DNA of 45,176 nucleotides from Escherichia phage vB_EcoS-22664BS2, in the sequence record NC_073324.1; one strand, written 5' to 3'. The notes under the pieces were generated by a model. The model worked only from the letters and a program-made list of their open reading frames with translations. It ran no database searches and was not told where the DNA came from. The position numbers were made by a program, and so were the translations under genes. This document shows positions 18,778 to 44,839 of this stretch, piece after piece. Position 1 is the stretch's first letter, and the number at the start of each line of letters is the position of its first letter.

Positions 18778-18818
18778 GGTGTAGCTCCTGTTTGGGATAA
18801 CATCGTTGGTGTAAGTGA

Positions 18819-31865: not shown

Positions 31866-31895
31866 TTCTCAATTCCTTATATTGTTGGTGTAAGG

Positions 31896-32180
31896 CTAAC
31901 TATAATAGTTCGCTATTAGGTCGTCAACCTGTTTAAACGAACCAACGACAAAAACATTTGCACCGCGTTTACGGAATCTTTCATGCTCGCGTAACTGGTG
32001 GGGGTCAGGCTTCGTGTTTTCGTCTTTCTTAATCTCGACGAACCAGATGATACCGCCGGGGAGAATTACCAGCAGGTCCATGGCGGCTCGCCGGCCTTCA
32101 AATGCCATCTTGCGAACGAGGCCACCAATGGCCTCGAATCGCTCTTTTGCGTATTTCTGAATCTTGCCTTCCGGGGTCAT
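31896..32180 (-). CDS. VRR-NUC nuclease
   Basis: DLLVILPGG...FVEIKK pattern (PD-(D/E)XK core). Confidence 0.6.
   Translation of the reverse strand: MTPEGKIQKYAKERFEAIGGLVRKMAFEGRRAAMDLLVILPGGIIWFVEIKKDENTKPDPHQLREHERFRKRGANVFVVGSFKQVDDLIANYYS
31899..31927 (-). promoter_or_regulatory. sigma70-like promoter (TTGACG-N17-TATAGT)
   Basis: Conserved promoter family; lies in the 3' end of the upstream gene. Confidence 0.45.
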
Positions 32181-32333
32181 GAGCGCAGAACCCAGGTTAT
32201 AAACGCTCCTCCGAGAACGGCAACGCCAACAAACTTAAAGAACAGGCCGTAACAGAACATCGCAGCTATTCCCGCGCCGAGTAACAGTGCGAGCATGGTT
32301 ACTATGGTCCTAAATACAAACATTGTCATAATA
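32181..32333 (-). CDS. small membrane peptide (50 aa)
   Basis: Read by eye; hydrophobic; stop overlaps downstream ATG. Confidence 0.3.
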
Positions 32334-32411
32334 CACACCCCTCACGTTTCGTATGCTCAATCCCGCAGCGCGGACAGATTCGGCAGTCTTCTTCGTATAA
32401 CCAGTAAATTT

Positions 32412-32543
32412 TCATTCCAGCACCCACAGATAAATTGCTACTAACATACCCAATACGGCGACCATCATGCCGTATTGGCCCTCGTGACAATAGACACCGG
32501 CGGCGAATCCCGCCAGTACCGCGATAATCAGTTTACTTAGCAT
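32412..32543 (-). CDS. small membrane peptide (43 aa)
   Basis: Read by eye; hydrophobic; overlaps 3' end of polymerase gene. Confidence 0.3.
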   Translation of the reverse strand: MLSKLIIAVLAGFAAGVYCHEGQYGMMVAVLGMLVAIYLWVLE

Positions 32544-34713
32544 AACGCTTCATCTCCGCACCTTCTGCTACAAGAGGGAACCCCTCAGCCCATTCCGGTA
32601 ATTCGCACATCAACCGCTCAAGCTCTGCAACATTGTATTCTGGTAAATCTGGTGTCTCGCAGATAATCTCATCGTGTACGTGAAGCACAATCGGGTATCC
32701 GTTTGCTTCTACGTTCAGCAGGGCGTTAGCCAGCAAATCACGGCACAGCGCCTGAGTGCAGTTTTCCACCAGTTTACCGGAGTAGGTATACTGGAAGCCC
32801 CACTGCCTGGTTAACTGGTTTTCGCCCTGGTACTTGATGCGCACGTTAGTAGACACCTTCCCGTCTTCGTCTGTCTCTTTTGATACACTTAAACCAACGC
32901 CCGGGTAAGACATAACGCGGCCCGACGGCAACGTCATGCGCAACCACCAGCCCGCGACTTTGTTGCCGTTGGTGTCTGTTTCTACGTTACGCGAAAACTT
33001 AACGCCCCGCGGCCCTGCGGTGAACTCTTTACCTGGGTTGCGGATAGCCGCCATAGCTGCATCTTCAATATCTCGCCAGAAAGCTACTGTTTCCGGGTGA
33101 GACTCGCGCCACATGCGCTTGATAGCGTCACAGGTACGCCACACTTTCTTATCAAGAATATATGATGGTCGGTCATCCTTTTCACCTGGACGTGGTGGTC
33201 GCTTGGCTTCCTGAATACGCGCCCACTCATATCCACGTGCGGTAGCGGCCCATATATGGTCCGGGAAAGTACCGTCCATTGTTTTAGCCATATCAACCAG
33301 GTCAAGGCCGAGGTTTTTAGCGAACTGAACGAAAGCACCGACACCGCCCGCGTATCCGAGGCCCAATTCGCAGGCTTTACCAATCTGGCGTAAGTCTTTA
33401 CGTTCTTTCTTAATGTAATCCGGCTCCATGCCAAACATCTTACCTGCTGTTACGCAGTAAATATCCAGTCCGGCGCGGAACGTATCTAGCGCGGTTTCTT
33501 CGCCTGCCAGCCACGCAAGCCCGCGACCCTCAACGTTAGAGTAATCGGCGACGACAAACTTATGCCCAGCTTCCGGTATAATGCAGCTACGAACGGTAGA
33601 TGCCGTCAGCTTGGCTACGTCAAATCGGCGGTGCGCCCGGCCCTTAAGTAACGCTGAAATGCCTTTATCCAGTTCATCATCGTGATAGTACCCACGCGCC
33701 AGGTTCTGTGGCTGGAAGCCTTTACCCGCGAACCGTAACGTACGCTTTGCCCCACCGTACTGGATACAACCGCGGCGTCGGTCGTCCGACGAGCGGCCTA
33801 ACAGCAGCGGGTTATATTTCGTGGACGCTGTTGACGCGGCCCCGAGGCGCATTTCGATAATCATCCGGGCGTCGTCCGGTAAATCATCATCTGCCAACAG
33901 GTCGTTAAGCGTCGACTTCTGTGCATTGTGTATGCGGTGCGCGGGCGCAAGTTCACGCAGAATCGGAAGGAAGTCTTTACCGGTAAGCGAGCCGCCGTAT
34001 TTACGTTGAGCTTCTTCCTGTAACTGTGCCTTGTGCTTCTCTACGGCTTCAATCGCGGCTTCCGCCAGTGCGACGTCAACCTTAAATCCGCGGTCGTTGA
34101 TTAACTGGTCAAGTTCCAGTACACGGTCTTCGAACTCGGAGTTACCCCAACGCGGCAGCTTATGGAAGACTTCACGCATCGCAGTGATGTCGCTCACGGC
34201 GTACCTGATGAACATCGCCCACTCGTCAGGGTGCGTTTCAGCGGTATATCGGCGTATTTTGTAGTTCTTCGGTGTCGGTTTAGAGAAACGCTTAATCAGA
34301 GCCTTGCCGCGTTTATCTTTCGCGTTGTCTGCAGACACGCCCAGCACTTCGCACAGCGCATCAAGAGAACCCGGCAGCGCGTGACGGAACGCCCAAATCA
34401 TAGTATCAATGGTGTTACTTACCGGAATATCAAAGTCCCAGCAGTGTTTCATGATTAGGCGATCGAAAAGTCCACCGTTGTGCCACACCATCTTGATGCG
34501 GCTGTTGGGCTTAACAAGGCGGCGCAGTGCGCGGTGTAAATCCCCCGGCATGTCGCTGCCGTCGGTGCAATCCCATACCCGCACAGGTTCGTCGTCAAAA
34601 GCATATGTACAGATAAGCACTTCGGTTGACGGGTGTTCGGCGTAAGCGTAAGAACCGACTTTCTTCAAATCGGCTTCTGAGAATGTTTCAAAGTCTAAGA
34701 ACAGGTAACTCAT
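32533..34713 (-). CDS. family A DNA polymerase with 3'-5' exonuclease domain
   Basis: N-terminal Exo motif LDFETFS; 726 aa. Confidence 0.85.
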   Translation of the reverse strand: MSYLFLDFETFSEADLKKVGSYAYAEHPSTEVLICTYAFDDEPVRVWDCTDGSDMPGDLHRALRRLVKPNSRIKMVWHNGGLFDRLIMKHCWDFDIPVSNTIDTMIWAFRHALPGSLDALCEVLGVSADNAKDKRGKALIKRFSKPTPKNYKIRRYTAETHPDEWAMFIRYAVSDITAMREVFHKLPRWGNSEFEDRVLELDQLINDRGFKVDVALAEAAIEAVEKHKAQLQEEAQRKYGGSLTGKDFLPILRELAPAHRIHNAQKSTLNDLLADDDLPDDARMIIEMRLGAASTASTKYNPLLLGRSSDDRRRGCIQYGGAKRTLRFAGKGFQPQNLARGYYHDDELDKGISALLKGRAHRRFDVAKLTASTVRSCIIPEAGHKFVVADYSNVEGRGLAWLAGEETALDTFRAGLDIYCVTAGKMFGMEPDYIKKERKDLRQIGKACELGLGYAGGVGAFVQFAKNLGLDLVDMAKTMDGTFPDHIWAATARGYEWARIQEAKRPPRPGEKDDRPSYILDKKVWRTCDAIKRMWRESHPETVAFWRDIEDAAMAAIRNPGKEFTAGPRGVKFSRNVETDTNGNKVAGWWLRMTLPSGRVMSYPGVGLSVSKETDEDGKVSTNVRIKYQGENQLTRQWGFQYTYSGKLVENCTQALCRDLLANALLNVEANGYPIVLHVHDEIICETPDLPEYNVAELERLMCELPEWAEGFPLVAEGAEMKRYAK

Positions 34714-34727
34714 TATTTTTGACCCCT

Positions 34728-34753
34728 AGTAAAAAGGCCCAATGAAGGGCCTT
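34728..34753 (-). terminator. hairpin terminator/attenuator upstream of polymerase
   Basis: AAGGCCC...GGGCCTT hairpin followed by T-run on minus strand. Confidence 0.5.
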
Positions 34754-34772
34754 AGTTAAATTGATTCAGATA

Positions 34773-35399
34773 TTAGCGGCGGCGACGTTCGCGGCGCGGT
34801 GCTTCATCTTCTTCGTCGTCTTCCAGGTCATTGACGCTCGCAGCGACTTTAGAACCGCCGAACGCTTTGCCTTCGCCAACGTATTTAATCGCCAGCAGGT
34901 TAACGCCGAGGACTTTGTATTTCTGGCTGAACCAGATTTCAACGCTTACGTTAGCTAAGCATCCGCTGTAAACCTGTTCACCTTCAATCTGTTCACCGTC
35001 TACATTGAAGTCCTGTTCTACCTGAGTCTCACCTTTTTTAGAGGTTACAATCAGCGGCTGCTTCTGTGCCTTCGCTTTGAAGTAGAAGCCTTCCGGGAAG
35101 TCTTCAAACGGATTGTCACGCTCGGCAATGTCTTTAATCGCACATTTATCCATGTGCTTACCTTCGCCGTAGTTGGACTTCATCCACTTCTCGGCGGCGG
35201 CTGCACCTAACGCTTCTTCAACTACAGCGTAAACGGTGTCGTAGAGCGCGTCGATTTGCGCGTGGTCGGACGGCAGGATAATAGTCGCGCTGTACTGACC
35301 TTTAGTGATTGAACCATCATCATTTTCACGGTCTTTTTCGCGTTCGAATACGTTAACCCAAGCAGTGTTTACTTTACGCAGATTTAATTTCAGTCCCAT
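34773..35399 (-). CDS. putative ssDNA-binding protein (call from gene context only)
   Basis: Between RecB-like nuclease and polymerase; acidic DDEEDE stretch near C-terminus. Confidence 0.4.
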   Translation of the reverse strand: MGLKLNLRKVNTAWVNVFEREKDRENDDGSITKGQYSATIILPSDHAQIDALYDTVYAVVEEALGAAAAEKWMKSNYGEGKHMDKCAIKDIAERDNPFEDFPEGFYFKAKAQKQPLIVTSKKGETQVEQDFNVDGEQIEGEQVYSGCLANVSVEIWFSQKYKVLGVNLLAIKYVGEGKAFGGSKVAASVNDLEDDEEDEAPRRERRRR

Positions 35400-35454
35400 T
35401 TCTCGATTCCTCAGTTTTCAGTTTACTCCGGGAGCTGCCCGGCCAGTGATTAGA

Positions 35455-35483
35455 ACTATAATAGCTAACTATTCAGGTGTCAA
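35455..35483 (-). promoter_or_regulatory. sigma70-like promoter (TTGACA-N17-TATAGT)
   Basis: Consensus -35, 17-nt spacer. Confidence 0.5.
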
Positions 35484-35672
35484 ATAAAATTTCGCAATAC
35501 GGGCTATGTTCTCGAAATCATTCATATCAACGGGTTCGAATTCATCCTCCACATGGTTGTATCGCACCATCGTGCCGTTCAGGAACGTAAACGATTCCGA
35601 ATGGATATAACCGCCCCAGCGCCATATCATCACAAAATCTTTATCTGTGGGCATTTCATTTACTTGAATCAT
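35469..35672 (-). CDS. hypothetical protein
   Basis: ORF track; start overlaps upstream stop. Confidence 0.4.
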   Translation of the reverse strand: MIQVNEMPTDKDFVMIWRWGGYIHSESFTFLNGTMVRYNHVEDEFEPVDMNDFENIARIAKFYLTPE

Positions 35673-36910
35673 TATAAATCCTCCTCTGTTACCCTATTCC
35701 ACTCAGGACGTTTGTCGTCTGCCGTTGCAACACATGGTGCGCCTGGCTTACGGGTAATGAAGTCTTTCAGTTCTTCTTCCGGTATGACTTTAACCGCTTC
35801 GGTTGGCGTCATGAGCACTTGCTTCATTAGCGCTATGCCATACTTGCCAGCCACTTTCTCTGCATCTTTCCACGCACGATTACCCGGGCGGCCTTCAACC
35901 AGCTTGTACCCCGGCACTTTCTTACCGGAATGCAACGCGGCAGCCATCGCTTTCTCAACCTTGTCGATGTGCTGGCGCAACAACGGCAACTTCTCATACT
36001 CAGCTACGAGTTGCTCCGGCGTAAGTTCCAGGGCAAAGTCGTCCTCCAGTTCTTCCGCCAGCACAGAGTTAACCGTCTTTGTACGCGCGGCGCACTGTTC
36101 AGAGAACCGGCACCACTGACAACCATCAACCGACGGCTTGAAGTCTGACGCTTTCAGGTTCTTCTTGCCACGGTGATAAGCATCAAGCGCTAACAGTGCG
36201 CGTTTCTGTGCGAACTTAGCGAACAGCTCCATACCTTCAACCGAGATGTCCCACTCCGACGCGCCGCCAGTGTACGGCTGGAAGATTACCAGACGAACAA
36301 CTGTTATGTTATAACGTCTCTTGAGTCGGCGATAAACACCGAGAGCGTAAAGCATAAGCTGCTTGTTTTCTTTCGCTTCGACGCGATGCCGCCCGGTTTT
36401 CAGGTCGCCGATAATGAGCATGTGCTCGTCGGTGTTTGCCAGTTCCTGGACAGCAACGAGGTCAGCGGTTCCGAACGTCTCAACGCCTTCATACCCCGGA
36501 TGCAATACCTCAGTAAGATTGACACGCATTTCCAGCTTGGCGTAAGTCGCTACGTCTATAATCGCTTTGCAGTAGTCGGTGTACTTGCGCACCTGCTCAA
36601 TCATGCCCGCCGTAATCAGTACCGCGCCTTTCATCGGGCTGATTAGCGCCTTAATCTGACCTTTGCCTTCATCCAGTACGTAAGCGCCGACTTCACGCTC
36701 CAACGGCAACGCAGTGCCTCGTATATAGGCGTTGAGATGGACCTCAGCTATGGTGTGCATGGCGGTTCCTAATACAGCGGCTTTACCCGACGTGTTAGGG
36801 GTATCTTTTTCACACGCCAGCGACGCAGCGCATGACAGCCACTTTTTAGCGCCTGACGGTGACAGTAAGGCGTGTACATCATTATTGCCGCCTCGTTCTT
36901 TTAGAATCAT
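35672..36910 (-). CDS. Cas4/RecB-family PD-(D/E)XK exonuclease with C-terminal Cys cluster
   Basis: GDLKTG...E.K core, QLMLYAL (QhxxY) motif, C-terminal CQWCRFSEQC. Confidence 0.6.
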   Translation of the reverse strand: MILKERGGNNDVHALLSPSGAKKWLSCAASLACEKDTPNTSGKAAVLGTAMHTIAEVHLNAYIRGTALPLEREVGAYVLDEGKGQIKALISPMKGAVLITAGMIEQVRKYTDYCKAIIDVATYAKLEMRVNLTEVLHPGYEGVETFGTADLVAVQELANTDEHMLIIGDLKTGRHRVEAKENKQLMLYALGVYRRLKRRYNITVVRLVIFQPYTGGASEWDISVEGMELFAKFAQKRALLALDAYHRGKKNLKASDFKPSVDGCQWCRFSEQCAARTKTVNSVLAEELEDDFALELTPEQLVAEYEKLPLLRQHIDKVEKAMAAALHSGKKVPGYKLVEGRPGNRAWKDAEKVAGKYGIALMKQVLMTPTEAVKVIPEEELKDFITRKPGAPCVATADDKRPEWNRVTEEDL

Positions 36911-37167
36911 TATTTAGCCTCCTCCGGTAGTTCTGGTAAATACATCCAGTGTGTTATACCCATCTCGATATACCGTTTCGTATATAACTGATTTCCGTTT
37001 TCATCCAGCCCAGCAGTAATGTCGTCGAAATAGTCCTGTATATGCACAAAATCAATTCCGCCTTCCGGGAACCCATTATCGTCACATTTACTTCCGTCTA
37101 CTGAGCAAACTAAAACAGAATCATCTTTTGACTCTGGTAGTGCTTCGTTTACGCTAACCCAATTCAT
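36910..37167 (-). CDS. hypothetical protein with C-terminal HWMYLPELP motif (DUF551-like)
   Basis: Shares C-terminal motif with 42965..43270. Confidence 0.45.
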   Translation of the reverse strand: MNWVSVNEALPESKDDSVLVCSVDGSKCDDNGFPEGGIDFVHIQDYFDDITAGLDENGNQLYTKRYIEMGITHWMYLPELPEEAK

Positions 37168-37436
37168 ACCCTGTTATCCCACTGGTCAATTAAATGTCGT
37201 GTCTTATGGTCGCAGTGCATGGCCCACCCATACATCGACTCGAAGACATAAAAGTCAGGCTTGGCGAAAGTTGTGCGCTTAATCTGTGACACGTGACGGC
37301 CTATATCTTTAGGCCGTGGTACTTTTCCTAAGTACGCCATCTCTTCCATCTGGTGCGCACCGGACGGAGCACGCAATAGCCATAGCGCCTCTGTGTTATC
37401 CCGCCTGTCGACGGCTCGGTAGAGTTGGTAAATCAT
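37164..37436 (-). CDS. hypothetical protein
   Basis: ORF track. Confidence 0.45.
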   Translation of the reverse strand: MIYQLYRAVDRRDNTEALWLLRAPSGAHQMEEMAYLGKVPRPKDIGRHVSQIKRTTFAKPDFYVFESMYGWAMHCDHKTRHLIDQWDNRV

Positions 37437-37449
37437 AATTCCGACCCTC

Positions 37450-37475
37450 AGTTAAAGCGGCCCGAAGGCCGCGAG
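37450..37475 (-). terminator. hairpin (weak terminator or RNA stability element)
   Basis: GCGGCC-CGAA-GGCCGC perfect stem; weak T-run. Confidence 0.35.
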
Positions 37476-37479
37476 ATAG

Positions 37480-37980
37480 TTATTCTTCTTCGAAATACTT
37501 GTTCTTGATTGCTGTCAGGCGTTCCAGGTACTCAACCAGGTCTTCGTCTTTAATCGCGGCAATCTTCATCTTCTTACCTGTGAACTCTTCCAGCAGTTCA
37601 TCAGAATCATCGCACGCGGCATCGCTAGGACCTTCATTAATTGCATCGTCGATGGCCTGAATCTGGTCACGCAGAGACTTGTAATCGACTTCTTCTTTCT
37701 CTTCTTCCGGTTCTGGCGCAGGTTCCTCTACTTTAGCTTTACGCGGCTTGCGTTTTGGCTTCTCTTCCTCCGCCGGTTTAGTGTCAACTACGTCTTCACC
37801 TTCAACCGGGATTTCTTTTGTTGCTTCTTCAGCGCACTCAGCTACCGCTTCTTTGGTGTACGATACCGTCTCTACTTCCAGCGGCGTGGCAACCTGAACA
37901 ACTTGTTTCGCACTGTTCGCGGCAATCAGTTCGTGCGCAACTACGAAACGTTCCAGTAATACTAAGAATTTCTCTAACAT
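37480..37980 (-). CDS. highly acidic low-complexity protein
   Basis: ORF track; long Glu/Asp/Pro-rich stretch. Confidence 0.5.
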   Translation of the reverse strand: MLEKFLVLLERFVVAHELIAANSAKQVVQVATPLEVETVSYTKEAVAECAEEATKEIPVEGEDVVDTKPAEEEKPKRKPRKAKVEEPAPEPEEEKEEVDYKSLRDQIQAIDDAINEGPSDAACDDSDELLEEFTGKKMKIAAIKDEDLVEYLERLTAIKNKYFEEE

Positions 37981-38004
37981 TATTTATTCTCCTGTTTATT
38001 TGGG

Positions 38005-38232
38005 TTACTCGCCGTCGCCTTCTGTAAGGCTATCGTCTATTAATTCAAATTTACCGTTTGGGTGTTGAATAGCTTCTTGCCCGCAATGGTCGCAGACAAC
38101 AAGTTTATCGAACCCATCAAACTCGTCCCCGACTACGCAAGAAAGTACAAATTTATGTTTTGTGCACACTTCCTGCGATTCTCCGAAAATTGCTAGAAAA
38201 CCTTTAGCTATGGCCCCCGTTATTGTGTTCAT
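38005..38232 (-). CDS. zinc-ribbon protein
   Basis: C-x10-C ... CDHC arrangement. Confidence 0.5.
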   Translation of the reverse strand: MNTITGAIAKGFLAIFGESQEVCTKHKFVLSCVVGDEFDGFDKLVVCDHCGQEAIQHPNGKFELIDDSLTEGDGE

Positions 38233-38260
38233 ATCCGCCCCTCTCGTTTGGTATGGGCTA

Positions 38261-38289
38261 ACTATAATAGCGAACTATTCACATGTCAA
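38261..38289 (-). promoter_or_regulatory. sigma70-like promoter (TTGACA-N17-TATAGT)
   Basis: Consensus elements; divergent from the XRE gene promoter. Confidence 0.5.
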
Positions 38290-38293
38290 TGGG

Positions 38294-38322
38294 CTTTTCT
38301 AAAATAATTAATATGGTACTAT
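38294..38322 (+). promoter_or_regulatory. extended -10 promoter (TGgTACTAT) for XRE regulator
   Basis: TGn plus TACTAT; weak -35. Confidence 0.45.
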
Positions 38323-38353
38323 TCACATATCAACTGACTAAGGAGTAATTGAC

Positions 38354-38569
38354 ATGCAACCATCTGAACTAGGTATCCGTGTAGAACAACGCCGTAAAGA
38401 ACTCGGCATCTCCCAGCGCCGTTTGGCGGCCCTGACCGGCGTTTCCCAGGGCGCGATTAACCAACTGGCACTTGGAGTAACTCAGGACGTCCGCCCGGCA
38501 ACGCTGTTCAAACTGGCGGAAGTTCTGGAAGTAGACGCCAAGTGGCTGGCGTTAGGTGAAGGGGCTTAA
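38354..38569 (+). CDS. XRE-family HTH transcriptional regulator (Cro/CI-like)
   Basis: ELGISQRRLAALTGVSQGAINQL helix-turn-helix signature. Confidence 0.65.
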   Translation: MQPSELGIRVEQRRKELGISQRRLAALTGVSQGAINQLALGVTQDVRPATLFKLAEVLEVDAKWLALGEGA

Positions 38570-38586
38570 AGCCCCTTTCTTTTTAT
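38559..38586. terminator. bidirectional terminator
   Basis: GGGGCT-TAA-AGCCCC hairpin plus TTTCTTTTT; between convergent genes. Confidence 0.55.
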
Positions 38587-38897
38587 AGCAACTTATCGAG
38601 TTCTTCCAAATTCTTAATAGTGTGTTGCACGTTCAGGTACTGAATCCAGGCGAGAAACCACGCACTTACAGGAAAACTTATAACAATAGTTATCGATATA
38701 ATTAATTTGAAAAGGCACTTTATAATCTCTGCCAGCGTCATGTCTAAAATGTCTTTAAACTCCGCAAAAATCCCCGCTGCATACACACAAAAAGTCCACC
38801 AGTGGCCGCTTACCGCGGAAACACATGTCAGGTATGACGGGCGGTATCCCGCCCTCACTGCTTTAAACGGGTTATCTATAAAATCGTAGATGTTCAT
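38583..38897 (-). CDS. small membrane protein
   Basis: ORF track; two hydrophobic segments. Confidence 0.45.
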   Translation of the reverse strand: MNIYDFIDNPFKAVRAGYRPSYLTCVSAVSGHWWTFCVYAAGIFAEFKDILDMTLAEIIKCLFKLIISITIVISFPVSAWFLAWIQYLNVQHTIKNLEELDKLL

Positions 38898-41155
38898 TCC
38901 AAATCCTCCTCTGTCACTATCAGCATCTCATTCGGTTCGTATATTGTCTTCGGAATCTTGTTATCGTTTATGCCCCACGGCAGTCGATATTGCTTAGGTA
39001 TAGGCCTGTTGTTGTTATCCAGCCCAGAGACGATAACTCCCGCCTCGTGCATCTCTTCCAGTTTCTTTCGAAGGTCGTTATTAGCGTTAATTGGTACGCC
39101 GTAACTATCCTCTTTCGCGGCTTTGACGATAGCGGACATAGAAAACCCGCGCTTGTCGTCGCCCTGCTCCTGCAATTTACCCAACGCGTAAATAACCGTA
39201 GCCTCTTTGGTGTCCAGTTTCTCGAACTGACCTACCTTTTCTTTAACGGCTTCCTTCTGTTCGTCGGTCATACCTTCTACTTTCTTCACGAAGACAGAGA
39301 AGGCGTTAAAGTTAACAAAGACATCGATGTGCGGATTTCCCGCGTCAAAATCTCGTACATCGTCACTACTATACCCTTCCGGAAGCCCCATGAAGTTGTG
39401 AGTTGGTTCTTTCTTTTCCGGTGGCTCCGCTATCTGAATCTTCTGTATTACGAATCCTCTGGCTTTCTGCCGTTCTCCGTTTCGGTTCTTTATGTGATAC
39501 AGGTTTATCTCTAAGTTATTGTCGTTGTCCGGCTTATGCAGGAACATCCCATTATCAATGGAGTTGTGAAAGTCGCTTCCACCCTTCGGCATCATGCCGT
39601 TTTCAGACGGCACAGTTTCGTCGATGTTTTTAGTCGGGTGCACCATAGCGCCGACCGCGGCGTTAAGCGTCGACGCTATTTCGTTAAGCGCCTGCGCCGC
39701 TTCTTTCATCGACCTGTTGTCGTTCTCGTCGAAGCCAGGTATGCAAGTTTGTAGGGTATCAAACGTAACCTTTACAATTTTCTCTTCACCGGCAACACGG
39801 CGCATCATTCTTACTGCCCGGCGGCGCCACACCTCATCGAGTAAGTTACACCCATCCGCAACACAATCGATAATGTGCAAGCGGTCAAGGTTGTCACCGA
39901 GGGCGATTTGCAAAGACTTTTTATGACGCTCGAACGACTGTGCACCTTCACCGGCGAAAATGAACGCATGTCCTTCCGCGACCTCCGCCCCACCGAACGC
40001 ATATCTTTTTTCGGAGGCAATAGCGGCGTCAATCGCCATGCTAAATGTTGACTTACCGGTGTGGGACTTTGCGCAAATGTAGAATGATTCGTTAGTCTGC
40101 ACAAGGCCGTCTACGACGGAGTAAGCAGGTTCTTTTTCAACTTCCGGCTCGTCTTCGAGGTCTTCCAGCGTGCAAGTTACAGGCTCCTCGTTCTCTGTGC
40201 GATGCAGTTCTTCAACCTCTTCGTCCGGTAAATCAGGCAAAGCCGCACGAATGCTGTTAATACTGATAGGTTGCTTGTCTACGTTAAGCTCGTCCGGAAG
40301 GCCGCACATACGCAGGGCTAGATGTTGCCGGCGGTTAAGCTCGGTACAAGCGCCATTGTTTGTGTGCTGGCAGACAAAGCGCACTTCTTTACCGTCAAGC
40401 ATGATGCTGGTGGAGCCTTTACCGGTGTGCAGGTGTTCGTTAGGGCAGGGCACTTCGTACCCGCGCCCGGAAGATAAAGCGTCAAGTCCAAGCTCCGCTT
40501 CGCAGAAATGCGCTATATCTGCGTTAAGCCCATGCTCATCAGCGGCAAGTGTCTTAGCTTCACGTTTACGCAACCCCATCTCTTCGGCTTTCTTGATGTA
40601 CCGCTCCGCACGGATAACACGCCCTTCTGTAACCGTTATCTTCGACTCTCTATGCGGCAGGTAGATAAGGCGGTTGCCGTCTTCTGTGCAGTGGTCACGC
40701 AATGCCTCGTCTATTTCTAACTCTGCACAAATAGCCCGTTGCACCATCCACGCATCGTTAGAGTTAAACGGCGTGCGAGCCGGAACCAGAACGCGGAAGG
40801 CGTAATCACCGTTTTTACACGCGTGCTGATGGGATGCCGTTGTGTGTAGAATATTGAAGAACGGCGCGTTCTTGAATTTGCGGGTAAGGTCGCGGTACTG
40901 AGTACGGTTGAGATGGTCGAAGTCAAACTTAACCACACTGTCTTCCAGAATCGCGTTTTTACGGCGACCCCCAACGGGGGCGATAGCCTTCTGCTTAATC
41001 TTGGCAGCGTCGTACTCTTCCTTAGTCCATGACGGGTCTACGGACAGACGCTTCGATGTATCGCAGACATATTCTACGAACTGCTCCAGCGGCATTTCAC
41101 GCGCTACAGGGTTTTTATCGAATGTGTTACGCAGCGTTGCAAAAACAATATTCAT
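38894..41155 (-). CDS. replicative primase/helicase-like protein (CHC2-like zinc finger plus P-loop ATPase)
   Basis: CPNEH...CQHTNNGAC zinc-finger-like segment; Walker A SHTGKST. Confidence 0.6.
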   Translation of the reverse strand: MNIVFATLRNTFDKNPVAREMPLEQFVEYVCDTSKRLSVDPSWTKEEYDAAKIKQKAIAPVGGRRKNAILEDSVVKFDFDHLNRTQYRDLTRKFKNAPFFNILHTTASHQHACKNGDYAFRVLVPARTPFNSNDAWMVQRAICAELEIDEALRDHCTEDGNRLIYLPHRESKITVTEGRVIRAERYIKKAEEMGLRKREAKTLAADEHGLNADIAHFCEAELGLDALSSGRGYEVPCPNEHLHTGKGSTSIMLDGKEVRFVCQHTNNGACTELNRRQHLALRMCGLPDELNVDKQPISINSIRAALPDLPDEEVEELHRTENEEPVTCTLEDLEDEPEVEKEPAYSVVDGLVQTNESFYICAKSHTGKSTFSMAIDAAIASEKRYAFGGAEVAEGHAFIFAGEGAQSFERHKKSLQIALGDNLDRLHIIDCVADGCNLLDEVWRRRAVRMMRRVAGEEKIVKVTFDTLQTCIPGFDENDNRSMKEAAQALNEIASTLNAAVGAMVHPTKNIDETVPSENGMMPKGGSDFHNSIDNGMFLHKPDNDNNLEINLYHIKNRNGERQKARGFVIQKIQIAEPPEKKEPTHNFMGLPEGYSSDDVRDFDAGNPHIDVFVNFNAFSVFVKKVEGMTDEQKEAVKEKVGQFEKLDTKEATVIYALGKLQEQGDDKRGFSMSAIVKAAKEDSYGVPINANNDLRKKLEEMHEAGVIVSGLDNNNRPIPKQYRLPWGINDNKIPKTIYEPNEMLIVTEEDLE

Positions 41156-41280
41156 TTCTTTTTCTCCGCACGTTCTAAAGCTTCCTGCATACGACGCATT
41201 GCGCGGTTCATCTTTACCGGTGCGAAGAAATCAGCGCCATGTTTCTGGCGGCGTAGCTGTGGAACTATTAACTTCGACAT
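41152..41280 (-). CDS. small basic protein (42 aa)
   Basis: Read by eye; stop overlaps primase ATG. Confidence 0.3.
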   Translation of the reverse strand: MSKLIVPQLRRQKHGADFFAPVKMNRAMRRMQEALERAEKKK

Positions 41281-41330
41281 TGTATAATCCTTGTGCTTAC
41301 TTTGATGATTTGTGCTTTAGCCCCGACGTT

Positions 41331-41564
41331 CTAGCGTTGGGGTTTCTTTTGCCTACGTGCCGCATTAATCCACTCTCCTTCGCTCTGGTAGAAACTGCAA
41401 TCAAGAATATCCTCTATAGAAAATTTAACTATTTTAGTGGGTCCACAAAAGTTATAAGGGAAAAGTTCTACATAACACCCATCGTCGGTTATATTCGACG
41501 CAATCTTGAAATAATATTTAATGCTGTCGTCTTCACGGAAGCTACAACCCATACGCCCAATCAT
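41331..41564 (-). CDS. hypothetical protein
   Basis: ORF track. Confidence 0.4.
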   Translation of the reverse strand: MIGRMGCSFREDDSIKYYFKIASNITDDGCYVELFPYNFCGPTKIVKFSIEDILDCSFYQSEGEWINAARRQKKPQR

Positions 41565-41749
41565 TTCACGTTCTCCTTAATCCACGCTTCAACTTTATTA
41601 CGGTCAAATGTTCCTGGTAAACGGCGCCCCATAACTTTAATACAGCAGTCAGGGAATTTACCACTGCGTAGCCAGTTATTAATTGTCTGACGTGTTACCC
41701 CGATACGTTCTGCTACTTCATTCTGGGTCATGTAATGTTGCATTTTCAT
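41561..41749 (-). CDS. small HTH DNA-binding protein (AlpA/excisionase-like)
   Basis: ATG at codon 19 of track ORF with AGGAGA RBS; MTQNEVAERIGVTRQTINNW HTH. Confidence 0.5.
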   Translation of the reverse strand: MKMQHYMTQNEVAERIGVTRQTINNWLRSGKFPDCCIKVMGRRLPGTFDRNKVEAWIKENVK

Positions 41750-41773
41750 ATCTCCTGTTTGTTTGGTGAAAAC

Positions 41774-41803
41774 GAGTATAGGATAGCGGGAATGTAAAAG
41801 CAA
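41774..41803 (-). promoter_or_regulatory. putative promoter (TTGCTT-N18-TATACT) for the HTH gene
   Basis: Divergent from the ncRNA-2 promoter. Confidence 0.4.
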
Positions 41804-41850
41804 CTAAAACACCACACAAAGTTACTAAGATACAAAAGATGCTACTGGTA

Positions 41851-41879
41851 TTGACTTTTACTAAAAAATATGGTAAGCT
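41851..41879 (+). promoter_or_regulatory. sigma70-like promoter with extended -10 (TTGACT-N17-TGgTAAGCT) driving ncRNA candidate 2
   Basis: Same architecture as 9362-9390. Confidence 0.5.
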
Positions 41880-41882
41880 CAG

Positions 41883-42095
41883 CCTGAGCTTGTGAAGTAT
41901 GAACAAGCGACCGCGGCGCGCGGCAGGCGAAACGAGCACGTGTAGCGTGTGGAGTGAGGCTCGCTAGCGCGTTTGGGAGGCCCAAAGTCTATTGTAAATC
42001 CCACCTAAATATCTAAGTTACTGATTTGCCGTAGGTCAGAACCGCAAGCTCACTCACTCACTCTTGGTGCCTTCGGCACCCCGTTCGTTTCGTTT
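41883..42095 (+). ncRNA. candidate structured non-coding RNA, copy 2
   Basis: 38-nt block identical to 9394-9431; ends in GGTGCC-TTCG-GGCACC hairpin with T-rich tail. Confidence 0.4.
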
Positions 42096-42147
42096 CGCTC
42101 GCCATCCCATTAAACAAAAGAATCACAACGGCAACGTAACTATTCTC

Positions 42148-42176
42148 TTGCACACCCCAACATAATAGGATACTAT
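42148..42176 (+). promoter_or_regulatory. sigma70-like promoter (TTGCAC-N17-TACTAT) for early operon
   Basis: Conserved promoter family; leader ATCGAAACGAGACAGAGGAG. Confidence 0.55.
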
Positions 42177-42210
42177 TCACTTATCGAAACGAGACAGAGG
42201 AGTGAGGGTT

Positions 42211-42399
42211 ATGTTTAAGAAGGGTCAGTTGGTTAAAGCCGTAGATTATTATTATGGTATTGTTGAAACAGAGTCTGTCGTTTTTCCCGGAACTTATAGG
42301 GTGCGTTTTCTCGTGAAAAGATTAGGTGCGGTAGATTGGTTCCGTGAAGACGAGCTAACACTCATCGGCAACAATTTTAAATTCAAAGGGGCGGAGTGA
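42211..42399 (+). CDS. hypothetical early protein
   Basis: ATG at codon 4 of track ORF with GAGGAG RBS. Confidence 0.5.
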   Translation: MFKKGQLVKAVDYYYGIVETESVVFPGTYRVRFLVKRLGAVDWFREDELTLIGNNFKFKGAE

Positions 42400-42605
42400 T
42401 GGAAGAATTATTTGAAGAGCTGAAACACTATAAGCTGCTGGAAGTGCATTTCGAGATAAACAGGTACGAGGTTGTTACTTTAGATGGAATAACAATTATC
42501 ACAGCCTCCGCCGGAAGAATGCTTCACAGTTTGCGTTCCATACGAACGGCATCGAATCATGATGCTCGTGCCGACGACTCTGAGGGAGGTTGCCGTGTTA
42601 AGTAA
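42396..42605 (+). CDS. hypothetical early protein
   Basis: ORF track; ATGA coupling. Confidence 0.5.
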   Translation: MMEELFEELKHYKLLEVHFEINRYEVVTLDGITIITASAGRMLHSLRSIRTASNHDARADDSEGGCRVK

Positions 42606-42804
42606 ATACCGCATAGTTAGTGAGGAGTGGGTTACCGCCTTCGGTGAGAAACGAATTACACCCGCCGTGCAGATGCGGGTCGGGTTTTTCTGGTGGGTTA
42701 CTCTGACCCGTTGTGAGAGCGTCAAGCAGGCGCGCTACTACATCGAACATGGTTGCACCAGGCGCGAGAAATCTAAAGTTATCGGAGTTATTAGTTATGA
42801 ATAG
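42595..42804 (+). CDS. hypothetical early protein (GTG start)
   Basis: GTG at codon 13 of track ORF preceded by GAGGGAGG. Confidence 0.4.
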   Translation: MLSKYRIVSEEWVTAFGEKRITPAVQMRVGFFWWVTLTRCESVKQARYYIEHGCTRREKSKVIGVISYE

Positions 42805-42961
42805 CCGCACGTTTATTTTGAGAGAAGCATTCGAACGGTGGGCCGTCGTCGAGGGTTTGCCGGTTAACAAGGGTTCGAAGAAAGAGTACCTGAACGTTAA
42901 GACGCGTCTTGCGTGGCGGGCGTGGAAAGCTGGTGTGTTGTCTGTTAAGAATCCGGGGTGA
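42797..42961 (+). CDS. hypothetical early protein (54 aa)
   Basis: ATG at codon 29 of track ORF. Confidence 0.3.
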   Translation: MNSRTFILREAFERWAVVEGLPVNKGSKKEYLNVKTRLAWRAWKAGVLSVKNPG

Positions 42962-42964
42962 TTT

Positions 42965-43270
42965 ATGGGTGAGTGGATTGAGTGTAGTGAGCAGATGCCG
43001 AAAACAAGCGGTCCGGTTCTGGCGTTTTATGTTAATCGATGTGGCAAGGGCAGAAGAGTCAGAGCTAAATATGTCCACTTTCGGCAAGTAGAGGCAGGTT
43101 GCGAAACTGAAGAAATATGCACTGATTATGATGAAGAAAAGGATATTTATTACTTGTCTGAAGGCTGGTATGAGCTCATCGATAACTGGGACGATTATAG
43201 CAGTATCGTGATTACGGAAGGCAATGTAACACACTGGATGCCATTACCAGAACCACCATCGCTGGTGTAA
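42965..43270 (+). CDS. DUF551-like protein (C-terminal HWMPLPEPP motif)
   Basis: ORF track; motif shared with 36910..37167. Confidence 0.5.
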   Translation: MGEWIECSEQMPKTSGPVLAFYVNRCGKGRRVRAKYVHFRQVEAGCETEEICTDYDEEKDIYYLSEGWYELIDNWDDYSSIVITEGNVTHWMPLPEPPSLV

Positions 43271-43305
43271 CAGGTCAATAGGTTACTATTTGTCTTTGTG
43301 ACTTA

Positions 43306-43335
43306 CGCTGCTGTGTAGCAGCGTATCATTTTTCT
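43306..43335 (+). terminator. intrinsic terminator
   Basis: CGCTGCT-GTGTA-AGCAGCG hairpin followed by T-rich run. Confidence 0.5.
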
Positions 43336-43418
43336 CATTTTTGTTCTATTTCACCAAACGCAACAATCGAAGCGACTATTGCAGGAGATGCAACAATACA
43401 AACACCAATAAAATTTAC

Positions 43419-43447
43419 TTGCACGCTGAGATGGAATAGGCTACTAT
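43419..43447 (+). promoter_or_regulatory. sigma70-like promoter (TTGCAC-N17-TACTAT)
   Basis: Conserved promoter family; leader ACGAGAGGAGAGACAGAG. Confidence 0.5.
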
Positions 43448-43477
43448 TCATTCACACAAACGAGAGGAGAGACAGAG

Positions 43478-43651
43478 ATGAATAAACAATATACATGCAT
43501 ACTACAGCAGAATACGGTACTTGGTAAACTAGCGGAAGAACTGCGTGAGGATATGATCGCCCATTATGAAGCCGAAGGTTACGAGTGTACGGTAGTTCAT
43601 GACGAGATTATCCTTACACGGAAACATGAGGTGGAAGGAGAAACAGAGTGA
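43478..43651 (+). CDS. hypothetical small protein (57 aa)
   Basis: Read by eye; GAGAGGAGAG RBS. Confidence 0.35.
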   Translation: MNKQYTCILQQNTVLGKLAEELREDMIAHYEAEGYECTVVHDEIILTRKHEVEGETE

Positions 43652-43748
43652 ACAGTAAAAACTGTGATTCGTAAGTATCGCCGTCGAGGTAACACCGGGC
43701 TTATAGCAATAACAGGCGCTGTTGAATAAGCGAGAGGAGAGACAGAAT

Positions 43749-43889
43749 ATGGGTTGGTACGGTAGTTGGACCTTGGGTGAACTGGTAGACGCTTACGAAA
43801 TAATGGGTAGCACTTCGGTGTGCAACGGCGACACTAAATCGCTGCTAGTCGGGGTGGACGAGAAAAGGGGCGAAGATGATGACGTTTAA
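43749..43889 (+). CDS. hypothetical small protein (46 aa)
   Basis: Read by eye; same GAGAGGAGAGACAGA leader as 43478. Confidence 0.35.
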   Translation: MGWYGSWTLGELVDAYEIMGSTSVCNGDTKSLLVGVDEKRGEDDDV

Positions 43890-44046
43890 AGAAGCAGTAT
43901 CGTACGGGTACTTACGGCGTAGAGGAAATTATAAAGGTGCTCCGTGGGTGTGCAACGGACGCCAGTTCGATACCTGGAAAGAAGCGCTGGCGGAAGCCAA
44001 CGAAATGTTAAAAAGAGACCGGGAGCAACAGAAAAATGAGCAATAA
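43876..44046 (+). CDS. hypothetical small protein (56 aa)
   Basis: Read by eye; overlaps both neighbours. Confidence 0.35.
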   Translation: MMTFKEAVSYGYLRRRGNYKGAPWVCNGRQFDTWKEALAEANEMLKRDREQQKNEQ

Positions 44047-44638
44047 CAACGATGCAGTAATCGAGTTCCTGCTTAGCCAACTACGGCAGCAGGTAAATAA
44101 CAACCCATACAAGCAACAGTGCGAAGACCTGGCGCACGAGGTGCAGTCACTTAAAAATCAGTTACGTGATGCGTCGGCGCTGGTGGCTGAGTTACATAAA
44201 GAGATTGATAGACTTAATGTGCTTAACAGTGAACTTATATTTTCAGAACACGAGCAATCCGATTGCCGTAAGGAAGATACCCAGCGTTGTCACCATAACT
44301 GGCGATTCGTTAATGGTAAGGCTCCCGCCGTATGTATTAATTGCGGAGTGACTAAATCCAGCGAGTGCGAGCACGAATGGCAATTTTACGGAGTCGGGTT
44401 TCCTCGTATGTGCCTTAAATGCGGGTTAAAGAGCCCTGGCCGTCAAAAAGAAGATGCGCAGGAATGCAACCATGATTGGGTTTTGGATGAAAAAGGGGAC
44501 TATTTCGTTTGCGCTAAATGCGGTAAGCAAGAAGCTGAATTAATTGATTGCCAACACACTAATACCGTTGGTTTGCGTAAGGGCTTTGCGCCGGGGTTTA
44601 CTAAAAAGTGTCTGGATTGCGGGGCTAAACTGAAATGA
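44036..44638 (+). CDS. tandem zinc-ribbon repeat protein with N-terminal coiled coil
   Basis: Four repeats of C-x-H-x-(W/N)...C-x2-C-G after an N-terminal coiled coil. Confidence 0.5.
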   Translation: MSNNNDAVIEFLLSQLRQQVNNNPYKQQCEDLAHEVQSLKNQLRDASALVAELHKEIDRLNVLNSELIFSEHEQSDCRKEDTQRCHHNWRFVNGKAPAVCINCGVTKSSECEHEWQFYGVGFPRMCLKCGLKSPGRQKEDAQECNHDWVLDEKGDYFVCAKCGKQEAELIDCQHTNTVGLRKGFAPGFTKKCLDCGAKLK

Positions 44639-44838
44639 CCAGCATCTTATTTATCTGGGTATTGTCGGCAGGCCAGATGCAACTAGCGGCATCAGAAACG
44701 TTTTACTCGATGGAGGCGTGCCAGTCAGCGGCACGCGCCGCAGAGAACGCGCACTTTCTGTTTCAGGGGGACAAGCCCAACGATTCAGAGGTACGCGCTA
44801 TCTGCTCACCTAAGCGACTTGGTAAACAGGAGAAATAA
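44635..44838 (+). CDS. small secreted protein (signal peptide, two Cys)
   Basis: N-terminal hydrophobic signal-like segment ILFIWVLSAGQMQLAA. Confidence 0.45.
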   Translation: MTSILFIWVLSAGQMQLAASETFYSMEACQSAARAAENAHFLFQGDKPNDSEVRAICSPKRLGKQEK

Positions 44839-44839
44839 C

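Follow-up and report, generated by a model that had tools for sequence, protein, structure and literature searches.

In the genome of Escherichia phage vB_EcoS-22664BS2 one small regulatory gene runs counter to the replication block around it, beside a divergent promoter region, and the locus raises the question of what its product regulates and whether the arrangement is a CI/Cro-type switch. The window (the whole stretch of DNA analysed, 45,176 nucleotides, NC_073324.1) is a complete Kagunavirus (Guernseyvirinae) genome, that of a lytic siphophage. As the original prediction had it, the XRE gene is the sole plus-strand gene inside the minus-strand block at 29065-41749; the annotated relatives Schulenburg, Jersey and fBC-Eco01 show the same, with the homologue as the single CDS on the opposite strand of the corresponding block. 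Here it stands as a lone convergent unit, with the primase-helicase block on the opposite strand. The features of the locus are as follows.

37480-37980, minus strand: gene for a 166-aa acidic protein (phrog_3127), conserved leftward of the XRE gene in all three clades compared (Kagunavirus, Jerseyvirus, St162-like)
38005-38232, minus strand: 75-aa Cys/His accessory ORF (phrog_32657), the first gene after P_L here
38261-38289, minus strand: leftward sigma-70 promoter P_L, TTGACA-17-TATAGT (promoter scan, 11/12 consensus)
38265-38333, no strand: two 25-nt direct repeats, 38265-38289 and 38309-38333 (repeat search)
38266-38279, no strand: perfect dyad O1, AATAGCGAACTATT, filling the P_L spacer
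38310-38323, no strand: dyad O2, AATATGGTACTATT, with one mismatch, overlapping the XRE -10
38314-38322, plus strand: candidate XRE promoter, extended -10 TGgTACTAT (sequence)
38340-38345, plus strand: RBS AAGGAG, 8 nt 5' of the XRE ATG (sequence)
38354-38569, plus strand: XRE/HTH_3 regulator gene, monocistronic, 71 aa, 434-Cro-like (ORF, Pfam, PDB matches, tblastn)
38558-38586, plus strand: intrinsic terminator of the XRE transcript, GAAGGGGCTT-AAAGCCCCTT followed by a T-run (terminator scan)

The XRE-family identity proposed for the product was confirmed by a match to Pfam HTH_3 (PF01381; E 3.9e-13, 49.7 bits against a cut-off of 23, residues 11-65). The best solved matches were 434 Cro and the N-terminal domain of the 434 repressor (PDB, E of about 1e-5), with XRE residues 6-68, that is the whole protein, aligned to residues 4-64 of 434 Cro. 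The protein consists of one domain of about 70 aa and has no C-terminal oligomerisation or peptidase domain, which is the Cro-type architecture. The gene was found by tblastn in 486 phage records of the Kagunavirus, Jerseyvirus and St162-like clades; it is near-universal in the lytic siphophages of the Guernseyvirinae and encodes a small Cro-like DNA-binding regulator. A literature search on Cro-like repressors of virulent phages gave nothing directly relevant.

The XRE gene is a self-contained unit set against the flow of the replication block, with its own promoter, a strong RBS, the 71-aa ORF and a terminator. At the RBS, CTAAGGAGTAA is conserved in the Kagunavirus and Jerseyvirus alignments. 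The extended -10 promoter that had been proposed was also recovered: the candidate has no recognisable -35 (CTTTTC at 38294-38299), and its TGn-TACTAT element is correctly spaced and conserved in 23/23 Kagunavirus loci. The Jerseyvirus promoter differs (TTGCGT-17-TACTAT). The terminator is predicted for the plus strand only, and it is annotated as such in Schulenburg and fBC-Eco01.

The divergent promoters had been taken to overlap and to carry AATAG/CTATT dyads. The dyads are present; the promoters themselves lie back to back (leftward -35 at 38289-38284, XRE -10 at 38317-38322). An alternative candidate XRE promoter, TTCACA(38278)-16-TAAAAT, was noted, and only if the gene uses it do the two overlap. 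P_L is followed by a conserved leader, ...ACCAAACGAGAGG. The 121-bp intergenic region holds both O1 and O2, 44 bp apart, one per divergent promoter and with no three-site array. The half-sites of O1 are invariant in 22/23 Kagunavirus loci, and the 4 bp between them take several forms (CGAA/TGAA/CTAA/CAAA); in O2 the left half-site has a G-to-T mismatch that is invariant among Kagunavirus loci, and this one conserved mismatch is the only hint of a difference in affinity. Each of the 25-nt repeats (84% identical, 44-bp spacing) has one dyad inside it, and the 16-mer ACTATTCACATRTCAA taken from them gave 4 matches at up to 3 mismatches, with 0.5 expected. The two Jerseyvirus counterparts next to the XRE gene are both degenerate, reading AATCG..CTATT and ATTAC..CTATT. 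A 14-bp near-palindrome, ATTCACATGTCAAT at 38277-38290, was considered as an alternative operator and rejected, showing no conservation in Jerseyvirus.

The layout had been likened to a Cro/CI-type switch, which would here mean that the XRE gene and the Cys/His ORF form a bistable pair choosing between two programmes, such as pseudolysogeny or a carrier state. Part of the likeness stood: as in the lambdoid switch, related sites, here two candidate operators with 44-bp spacing, lie in a divergent promoter region, and a gene for a 434-Cro-like protein comes first on one side. In St162-like relatives the gene also takes up a cro-like position, upstream of the primase-helicase gene and on its strand, much like cro at the head of the PR operon, which leaves a central divergent control region. 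The difference is that a second repressor, a RecA-sensitive domain, an integrase and lysogeny are all lacking, to judge by this locus and the annotation of complete relatives. The 75-aa partner has no DNA-binding domain in Pfam and is not conserved at the junction. Two divergent antagonistic repressor genes were not found, the first divergent gene of most relatives being that of the 166-aa acidic protein (73% identity in Jersey, about 40% in St162-like phages) or another small ORF. In most loci the gene of the acidic protein abuts P_L directly. The earlier remark that no integrase is present agrees with the complete relatives Jersey, St162, fBC-Eco01 and EC3-1, in none of which an integrase, a CI-type repressor or a CI with a cleavable C-terminal domain is annotated. 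Relatives of vB_EcoS-22664BS2 have been published as strictly lytic, and lysogeny genes were not reported in the published genome analyses. A bistable switch is thus very improbable, and comparison among the relatives has already largely refuted it.

The Cys/His ORF bears on the same point. It had been called a zinc ribbon, and two CxxC/CxxH knuckles are indeed there (C23-x2-H26 and C47-x2-C50, which together with C32 are invariant in 9 homologues of 61-95% identity); a known family or solved fold was not found. The ORF had no Pfam match, hence no Pfam HTH, and its sole PHROG match was phrog_32657 (E 7e-51). An AlphaFold2 model of low confidence (mean pLDDT 54, pTM 0.38) had four short strands, the CxxC falling between those at 43-47 and 53-56, and a Foldseek search against the PDB gave no significant match (best E-value 0.99). 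The ORF was found in 55 phage records, mostly of T7-like Kayfunavirus podophages. It is at the XRE junction in 7/23 Kagunavirus loci, absent there from 16/23, and at the junction in no Jerseyvirus locus examined; at least four other genes take the first slot after P_L among the relatives, and K1ind1 carries the ORF at a different location. The pairing of the XRE gene with this ORF is accidental, to judge by its absence from most junctions, the swapping of the slot and the occurrence of the gene in podophages and elsewhere in K1ind1. The same ORF is found among the early (class I) genes of Kayfunavirus (92-93% aa identity), for example as gp04 of LM33_P1 (92%), where the cassette is 88% identical over 266 nt with both flanking RBS included. 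LM33_P1 belongs to another virus family, and its gp04 follows an ocr-like gene and precedes the phage RNA polymerase gene. This early setting beside an ocr-like gene hints at a part in host takeover or in countering host defence. From its distribution, the Cys/His ORF is an unrelated mobile accessory cassette occupying the first slot after P_L in this isolate.

The dyads, by comparison with chance, are genuine. Over the whole genome AATAG-N4-CTATT occurs in 9 exact copies against 0.02 expected, and in 13 copies at up to one mismatch against about 0.7-1.0 expected. The region upstream of the XRE gene, which holds two, is the sole place with two copies. The perfect dyads all lie within or adjoining intergenic promoter regions, save the copy at 31904. 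The copies occupy promoter spacers (class L) or -10 regions (class R, in which the right half-site is the -10 itself, TACTAT). Those outside the XRE locus are listed here.

35460-35473, minus strand: class L dyad in the spacer of TTGACA-17-TATAGT, upstream of the SSB gene (ortholog at 32930 in Jersey)
31904-31917, minus strand: class L dyad in the spacer of TTGACG-17-TATAGT, inside the replication block
42164-42177, plus strand: class R dyad over the -10 of TTGCAC-17-TACTAT, heading the rightward small-gene cluster (leader CGAAACGAGA..GGAG, then ATG at 42211)
43435-43448, plus strand: class R dyad over the -10 of TTGCAC-17-TACTAT, upstream of the ORF at 43478-43651
18818-18831, minus strand: class R dyad promoter of the minus-strand accessory cluster, which encodes an Imm superinfection protein (start 18777), a phosphoesterase, a PNKP-type phosphatase and an AAA_18 protein
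9266-9279, minus strand: class R dyad promoter driving a 67-aa minus-strand ORF at 9036-9239
7427-7440, minus strand: class R dyad promoter of a minus-strand ORF that is flanked by the genes for portal and head morphogenesis (equivalent gene and promoter annotated in Jersey)
43277-43290, no strand: orphan perfect dyad with no clear promoter, between a stop codon and a terminator (conserved in EC3-1)

The same motif has been described before. In papers on the Kagunaviruses fBC-Eco01 and Golestan, PHIRE recovered tgAATAGTa-ccTATTat-T seven times in each genome, including once immediately upstream of the XRE gene, and these copies were called 'phage promoters'. The motif was there credited to a phage-encoded RNA polymerase; here the copies are taken for operators lying inside host sigma-70 promoters. 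Its recovery as a repeated promoter-like element, and the use of the right half-site as the -10 in class R promoters, would suit a reading in which the dyads serve as intrinsic promoter elements or are recognised by a non-HTH or host factor, while the XRE protein acts elsewhere (superinfection exclusion, silencing of host or prophage genes). Against it, no phage RNA polymerase is present in the annotation tables of the relatives Jersey, fBC-Eco01 and EC3-1, and in class L the dyad takes up the spacer, which is not read by polymerase. The dyad also sits in three registers relative to the -10 and therefore behaves as a separate module and not as a fixed polymerase contact. Its two-fold symmetry and variable centre, as read from the aligned copies, are the signature of a dimeric DNA-binding protein, and intrinsic elements are accordingly considered unlikely. 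MerR-like activation from the spacer was ruled out because the spacers, at 17 bp, are already optimal and the hexamers of class L come close to consensus. An Rfam scan of 37000-45176 gave two sub-threshold chance matches only, and the folding of the non-coding stretch 41885-42095 was unremarkable (z-score -1.49).

The XRE protein is a sensible candidate regulator of the dyad promoters, since its gene adjoins the divergent region that carries the genome-wide dyad. Our preferred reading, to which we give a probability of roughly 0.5, is that an XRE dimer binds the 14-bp dyads and represses early and middle sigma-70 promoters, its own more weakly. The protein would dimerise on the two-fold symmetric AATAG-N4-CTATT (14 bp), and a dyad occupied in the spacer or over the -10 would exclude RNA polymerase. 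The target set would be some nine sigma-70 promoters: three leftward ones of the replication block, five of small-gene or accessory clusters, and that of the XRE gene. As the protein accumulated, early and middle transcription would be lowered, as by Cro at PL and PR in lambdoid lytic growth. With a perfect O1 in the near-consensus P_L, the leftward operon would be strongly repressed, and with the one-mismatch O2 at its promoter the XRE gene would be autorepressed more weakly and later. The model has no CI partner and no lysogeny decision.

The comparison with phage 434 supports this geometry. Operators of 434 are 14 bp long, with conserved outer bases and a centre that is not contacted. The candidate dyad is likewise 14 bp, of 5-4-5 geometry, with the outer 5 bp conserved and the central 4 bp variable; of the two copies at the XRE gene, one covers its promoter and the other lies in the divergent promoter beside it, as in 434. 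The XRE protein and 434 Cro share the HTH_3 fold family and a length of 71 aa, and 434 Cro is the best solved match over the whole protein. The two differ in overall sequence (about 39% identity), in the recognition helix (SQGAINQ in XRE, KQQSIQL in 434 Cro) and in the half-site (AATAG here, ACAA in 434). Unlike 434, the phage is virulent and has no cI partner and no three-part OR/OL operators, and the candidate sites lie over about nine promoters genome-wide instead of in two operator clusters.

Published transcription data from a related Kagunavirus, K1B4 (BioProject PRJNA939978), bear on the timing. Its RNA-seq time course has poor time resolution, and places only four genes in the early class. 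A 'specific DNA binding' gene beside an 'AAA domain' gene falls in the middle class; this is probably the XRE gene, an assignment made by gene order alone; the supplementary tables list host genes only. The middle-class placing of the probable XRE gene was counted against the repressor model.

A second small HTH protein is encoded in the same block.

41564-41749, minus strand: 62-aa HTH_17 protein, first gene of the leftward primase-helicase operon (Pfam HTH_17, E 1.9e-8)

This protein, and not XRE, could bind the AATAG-N4-CTATT dyads and repress those promoters, the XRE target then being narrower or different (its own region, a host gene, competing phages). HTH_17 was found in 441 phage records, none of them outside Kagunavirus and Jerseyvirus; these are exactly the two clades that use AATAG, and between them it is 80% identical, whereas XRE is only 48% identical. 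It is absent from the St162-like phages, which have no AATAG dyads: in St162, tblastn gave nothing, the best six-frame HMM match had an E of 0.63, and 20 small proteins were without Pfam HTH_17. Its own candidate promoter has no dyad, so that it could be an upstream early regulator, and an HTH-domain gene equated with it by gene order only is among the four early genes of K1B4.

The St162-like phages also supply the evidence to the contrary, since without HTH_17 they keep dyads of the same geometry at 6-8 intergenic promoters. AWTAS-N4-STAWT occurs in 9, 6 and 6 copies in the Kagunavirus, Jerseyvirus and St162-like genomes against about 0.6 expected, and TATTA-N6-TAATA in 3 exact copies in St162 against 0.05 expected, the generalised St162 pattern having been derived after inspection of those same sequences. 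All three clades thus have enriched same-geometry dyads at intergenic promoters, including the promoter beside the XRE gene. In EC3-1, a Kagunavirus, 5/8 positions of the HTH_17 recognition helix are changed, and 8 exact dyads and the XRE helix persist unchanged. The dyad geometry moreover fits 434-type XRE proteins; the usual targets of small proteins of the HTH_17/excisionase type are direct repeats or single sites and not palindromes of 14 bp. An AlpA/Q-like antiterminator role for HTH_17 was ruled out, 62 aa being too short and the dyad being symmetric. Antiterminators of that type carry an RNA-exit-channel ring segment as well as an HTH and recognise an asymmetric element between -35 and -10; AlpA contacts DNA through residues with numbers as high as 142, and a single molecule reads an asymmetric 6-bp element. 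Binding of the dyads by HTH_17 is possible but, on balance, doubtful.

Comparison of the XRE proteins themselves was less decisive. The recognition helices of Kagunavirus (SQGAINQ) and Jerseyvirus (SQSLITH) differ at 4/7 positions, in proteins that are 48% identical overall, yet both clades have AATAG half-sites. The helices of Jerseyvirus and St162-like phages are more alike, and AATAG is never used by the latter. Across the three clades a shared dyad thus goes with different helices and similar helices with different dyads. Because helix likeness and half-site use are mismatched in this way, there is no simple covariation support for the link between XRE and the dyad. The covariation tests appear ambiguous, singling out neither XRE nor HTH_17.

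Repression by XRE, if correct, would offer a testable picture of temporal control through one 14-bp operator inside host-type promoters, and the operator reading corrects the published label of the motif as phage RNA polymerase promoters. Both Kagunaviruses and Jerseyviruses are often put forward as agents of phage therapy and food biocontrol, and questions of safety come up repeatedly where their genomes have genes annotated as 'repressor' or 'Cro'. A regulator of Cro type that stands alone, unaccompanied by a CI partner or an integrase, supports the strictly lytic reading. As a circuit the XRE arrangement is ordinary, of the expected kind and no surprise.

More tentatively, and with the odds leaning against it, the Guernseyvirinae may keep a 'Cro without CI', one 434-type repressor with a regulon of about nine promoters that includes accessory clusters of the structural module. 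Its half-sites would have co-drifted in the St162-like clade (from AATAG to ATTAG/ATTAC/AATAC), and the St162 layout, with its central divergent control region, would be a remnant of lambdoid PL/PR after loss of lysogeny.

The two divergent genes of the original prediction were found at 38005-38232 and 38354-38569. The plus-strand ORF was assigned to the XRE family by Pfam PF01381 (HTH_3; 49.7 bits against a cut-off of 23) and matched several PHROG regulator families. As claimed, it is the sole plus-strand gene of the minus-strand block 29065-41749, and its homologue is the only opposite-strand CDS of the equivalent block in Schulenburg, Jersey and fBC-Eco01. The predicted extended -10 was located at the correct spacing; 17 bp upstream the sequence reads CTTTTC, so the candidate promoter is without a -35. 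The features of the locus are:

38005-38232, minus strand: Cys/His ORF, 75 aa, the predicted 'zinc-ribbon' gene
38261-38289, minus strand: promoter P_L, TTGACA (38289-38284)-17-TATAGT (38266-38261), near-consensus (11/12; promoter scan and own scan)
38266-38279: first dyad, AATAGCGAACTATT, filling the spacer of P_L
38310-38323: second dyad, AATATGGTACTATT, overlapping the XRE -10
38314-38322, plus strand: extended -10 of the XRE gene, TGgTACTAT
8 nt 5' of the ATG, plus strand: XRE RBS, AAGGAG (from the sequence)
38354-38569, plus strand: XRE gene, 71 aa
38558-38586, plus strand: XRE terminator, a stem-loop and T-run overlapping the stop codon (terminator scan, plus strand only)

With its own extended -10, RBS and plus-strand terminator (the latter also annotated in Schulenburg and fBC-Eco01), the XRE gene is a self-contained monocistronic unit. 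It is convergent with the 3' end of the primase-helicase operon, whose stop is at 38583; no minus-strand terminator was found at this junction by the terminator scan. The promoters were predicted to be divergent and overlapping. They are divergent, but the core promoters stand back-to-back with a 4-bp gap, and would overlap only if an alternative plus-strand promoter, TTCACA(38278)-16-TAAAAT, is used. The intergenic region (38233-38353) contains two direct repeats of 25 nt each, 44 bp apart, with one dyad in each. In 22 of 23 Kagunavirus loci the first dyad has unchanged half-sites, while its central four bases vary (CGAA, TGAA, CTAA, CAAA); all 23 retain TGn-TACTAT and, in the second dyad, the left half-site with its one mismatch.

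The dyads are real and highly significant. Nine exact copies of AATAG-N4-CTATT are present in the window (0.02 expected from second-order Markov simulations) and 13 with at most one mismatch (0.7-1.0 expected); it is the stand-out palindrome of the window. Viewed in transcriptional orientation, the sites form two classes of promoter:

Class L, TTGACA-N4-AATAG-N4-CTAT|TATAGT, dyad in the spacer: 38266, 35460 (SSB gene) and 31904, all directed leftward within the replication block
Class R, TTGCAC-N10-AATAG-N2-TACTAT, dyad over the -10, then a conserved leader (...CGAAACGAGAGGAG) and an ATG: 42164 and 43435 (plus strand), rightward small-gene clusters
Class R, same structure: 7427, 9266 and 18818 (minus strand), accessory genes inside the structural module

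The minus-strand class R genes include a superinfection-immunity gene and a phosphoesterase/PNKP-phosphatase/AAA_18 set; the structural late operon itself has no dyad site. The XRE promoter is of class R, with the -35 lost and TGn gained; in Jerseyvirus the corresponding promoter is TTGCGT-17-TACTAT. Relative to the -10 the dyad takes up three registers, its centre being at about -12.5 in class R promoters, -18.5 in those of class L and -15.5 at Jersey 16957. Given these registers, the perfect two-fold symmetry and the free centre, the dyad looks like the operator of a dimeric protein laid over ordinary sigma-70 promoters and positioned for repression.

The same motif was reported in fBC-Eco01 (consensus tgAATAGTa-ccTATTat-T, one copy just 5' of the XRE gene) and in Golestan, where PHIRE detected seven 'phage promoters' each, assigned to a phage-encoded RNA polymerase. 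No gene for such a polymerase is annotated in Jersey, fBC-Eco01 or EC3-1, and the reading of these elements as operator-bearing sigma-70 promoters is new here.

Some further sites were noted. A perfect dyad, AATAGGTTACTATT, at 43277-43290 has no recognisable promoter; it is flanked by the DUF551 stop codon on one side and a terminator (43304-43325) on the other, and is conserved in EC3-1. One-mismatch dyads at 1419-1432 and 9357-9370 overlap the TTGACT -35 of promoter-like sites and may be additional, weaker operators; the promoter-like site at 1424 (TTGACT-17-TATATT) is located downstream of the lysis genes and has a conserved counterpart in Jersey at 42343. The accessory cluster 16379-18853 (minus strand), in the structural module, is driven by the class R promoter at 18818-18853 and encodes a superinfection-immunity protein, whose true start is at 18777, together with a calcineurin-like phosphoesterase, a PNKP-type HAD phosphatase and an AAA_18 protein; it looks like an RNA-repair (polynucleotide kinase-phosphatase-like) set.

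The closest solved relatives of the XRE protein are 434 Cro and the N-terminal domain of 434 repressor (E ~1e-5, residues 6-68), and 434 Cro is of equal length. The 434 operators are 14-bp sites of two-fold symmetry whose outer bases are conserved and whose centre is uncontacted; their 5-4-5 geometry is that of AATAG-N4-CTATT. A second small HTH protein, an HTH_17 protein of 62 aa (41564-41749, minus strand), heads the leftward primase-helicase operon and could bind the dyads instead. Kagunavirus and Jerseyvirus, the two clades with AATAG half-sites in common, share 80% identity in this protein but just 48% in the XRE protein, where 4 of the 7 recognition-helix positions differ (SQGAINQ and SQSLITH); in St162 both HTH_17 and the AATAG dyad are missing. 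In St162-like phages, however, a dyad of the same geometry is still enriched at intergenic promoters, and St162 has no recognised HTH regulator other than XRE. There, TATTA-N6-TAATA occurs in 3 exact copies (0.05 expected) and 8 with at most one mismatch (1.3 expected), 7-8 of them intergenic; AWTAS-N4-STAWT, a generalised pattern derived after viewing those same sequences, occurs 6 times (0.55 expected), all intergenic, one copy being in the leftward promoter adjoining the XRE gene. Moreover, HTH_17 of the Kagunavirus EC3-1 has a heavily altered recognition helix (VSTMTLNRW, against VTRQTINNW), yet the XRE helix and eight exact AATAG dyads are unchanged there. Each protein thus offers one case in which the helix has diverged and the operator has not. 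What tips the balance to the XRE protein is the dyad geometry, the St162 clade and the two dyad copies at its own locus; we give it roughly an even chance of being the dyad binder, and for HTH_17 the role is doubtful.

If the XRE protein is the binder, its dimer would occupy the 14-bp dyads and, bound in the spacer or over the -10, would exclude polymerase. As it accumulates, the replication-block, small-gene and accessory promoters would be turned down, and the conserved mismatch at its own promoter would make autorepression weaker and later. The sole Kagunavirus RNA-seq study, whose gene numbers can be mapped to the window by gene order only, is too coarse here (time points 5-120 min; just four genes classed early). 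The proposed CI/Cro-type switch is unsupported: neither a second repressor nor an integrase is annotated in the complete relatives Jersey, St162, fBC-Eco01 and EC3-1, published genome analyses list no lysogeny genes, and the Cys/His ORF is not a partner of XRE. The original prediction was otherwise largely right, and the locus is that of a lone Cro-type regulator of a lytic phage.

The XRE gene was detected in 486 phage records by tblastn (at least 90% identity in Kagunavirus, ~48% in Jerseyvirus, ~40% in St162-like phages), and in many GenBank records it is already named 'Cro' or 'transcriptional repressor'. In St162 it lies upstream of gp12 and the primase-helicase gene on the same strand, with the replication genes across a divergent control region, a cro-like position. 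The window and Jersey have their primase-helicase block on the other strand, which leaves the XRE gene on its own and convergent with that operon. The replication block is highly mosaic: primase-helicase is 27-29% identical between clades (window against Jersey and St162), and for SSB and exonuclease the window and Jersey share 98% and 91% identity. The primase-helicase gene (38894-41155) has the opposite orientation in St162, and a sharp mosaic boundary and an inversion lie directly beside the XRE gene.

The 'zinc-ribbon' assignment has invariant Cys/His pairs in its favour, but no similarity to a known family or solved fold was found. C23-x2-H26, C32 and C47-x2-C50 are invariant in nine homologues, which makes metal binding plausible. 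The ORF has no Pfam family, its sole PHROG match is a family of unknown function, and its AlphaFold2 model was poor (mean pLDDT 54) and gave no significant Foldseek match. It occupies the junction in 7 of 23 Kagunavirus loci; a conserved 166-aa acidic protein is directly there in 12, and one of three further small ORFs (53, 58 or 49 aa) in the other four. In Jerseyvirus loci this place is taken by the 166-aa gene, by an HNH-like gene or by another ORF. Elsewhere the Cys/His ORF was found in 55 phage records, mostly T7-like Kayfunaviruses (92-93% protein identity). In the Kayfunavirus LM33_P1 it is gp04 of the early region, preceded by an ocr-like gene and followed by the RNA polymerase gene, and the cassette DNA is 88% identical over 266 nt including both flanking RBS (window 37985-38255, LM33_P1 1817-2081); K1ind1 has a 73% homologue elsewhere, in a rightward early cluster. 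The ORF is a gene cassette exchanged between unrelated E. coli sipho- and podophages, and may act in host takeover or anti-defence; its recognition as a mobile early cassette common to T7-like phages is new here. The slot just 3' of P_L (38233-38260 and equivalents) is occupied by at least five different first genes in Kagunaviruses (75, 53, 58, 49 and ~166 aa) and others in Jerseyviruses; these varied genes, and the Cys/His cassette found elsewhere, mark it as a hotspot of exchangeable early-gene cassettes. P_L and its leader are conserved whatever first gene follows.

By megablast, the region and its surroundings matched 464-487 phage records, nearly all Escherichia Kagunavirus and Salmonella Jerseyvirus (Guernseyvirinae), with 90-99% identity to Kagunaviruses such as SHAK7858, Golestan and Schulenburg. 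These relatives are siphophages of ~42-45 kb, published as strictly lytic and without lysogeny genes, and in length and gene order the 45,176-bp window matches a complete genome of such phages. The closest relative, SHAK7858 (OR594183.1), is a Kagunavirus by sequence but is filed under Autographiviridae/Kayfunavirus; in its annotation the XRE gene is missing and a spurious antisense ORF stands in its place.

A gap of ~400 nt (41750-42163) without a convincing ORF separates the HTH_17 gene from the rightward dyad promoter. It gave no Rfam match and a folding z-score of just -1.5. On its plus strand, a promoter-like TTGACT-17-TGgTAAGCT near 41852-41880 and a terminator at 42066-42080 could give an RNA of ~190 nt, and a host promoter and a terminator are annotated at the equivalent position in fBC-Eco01.
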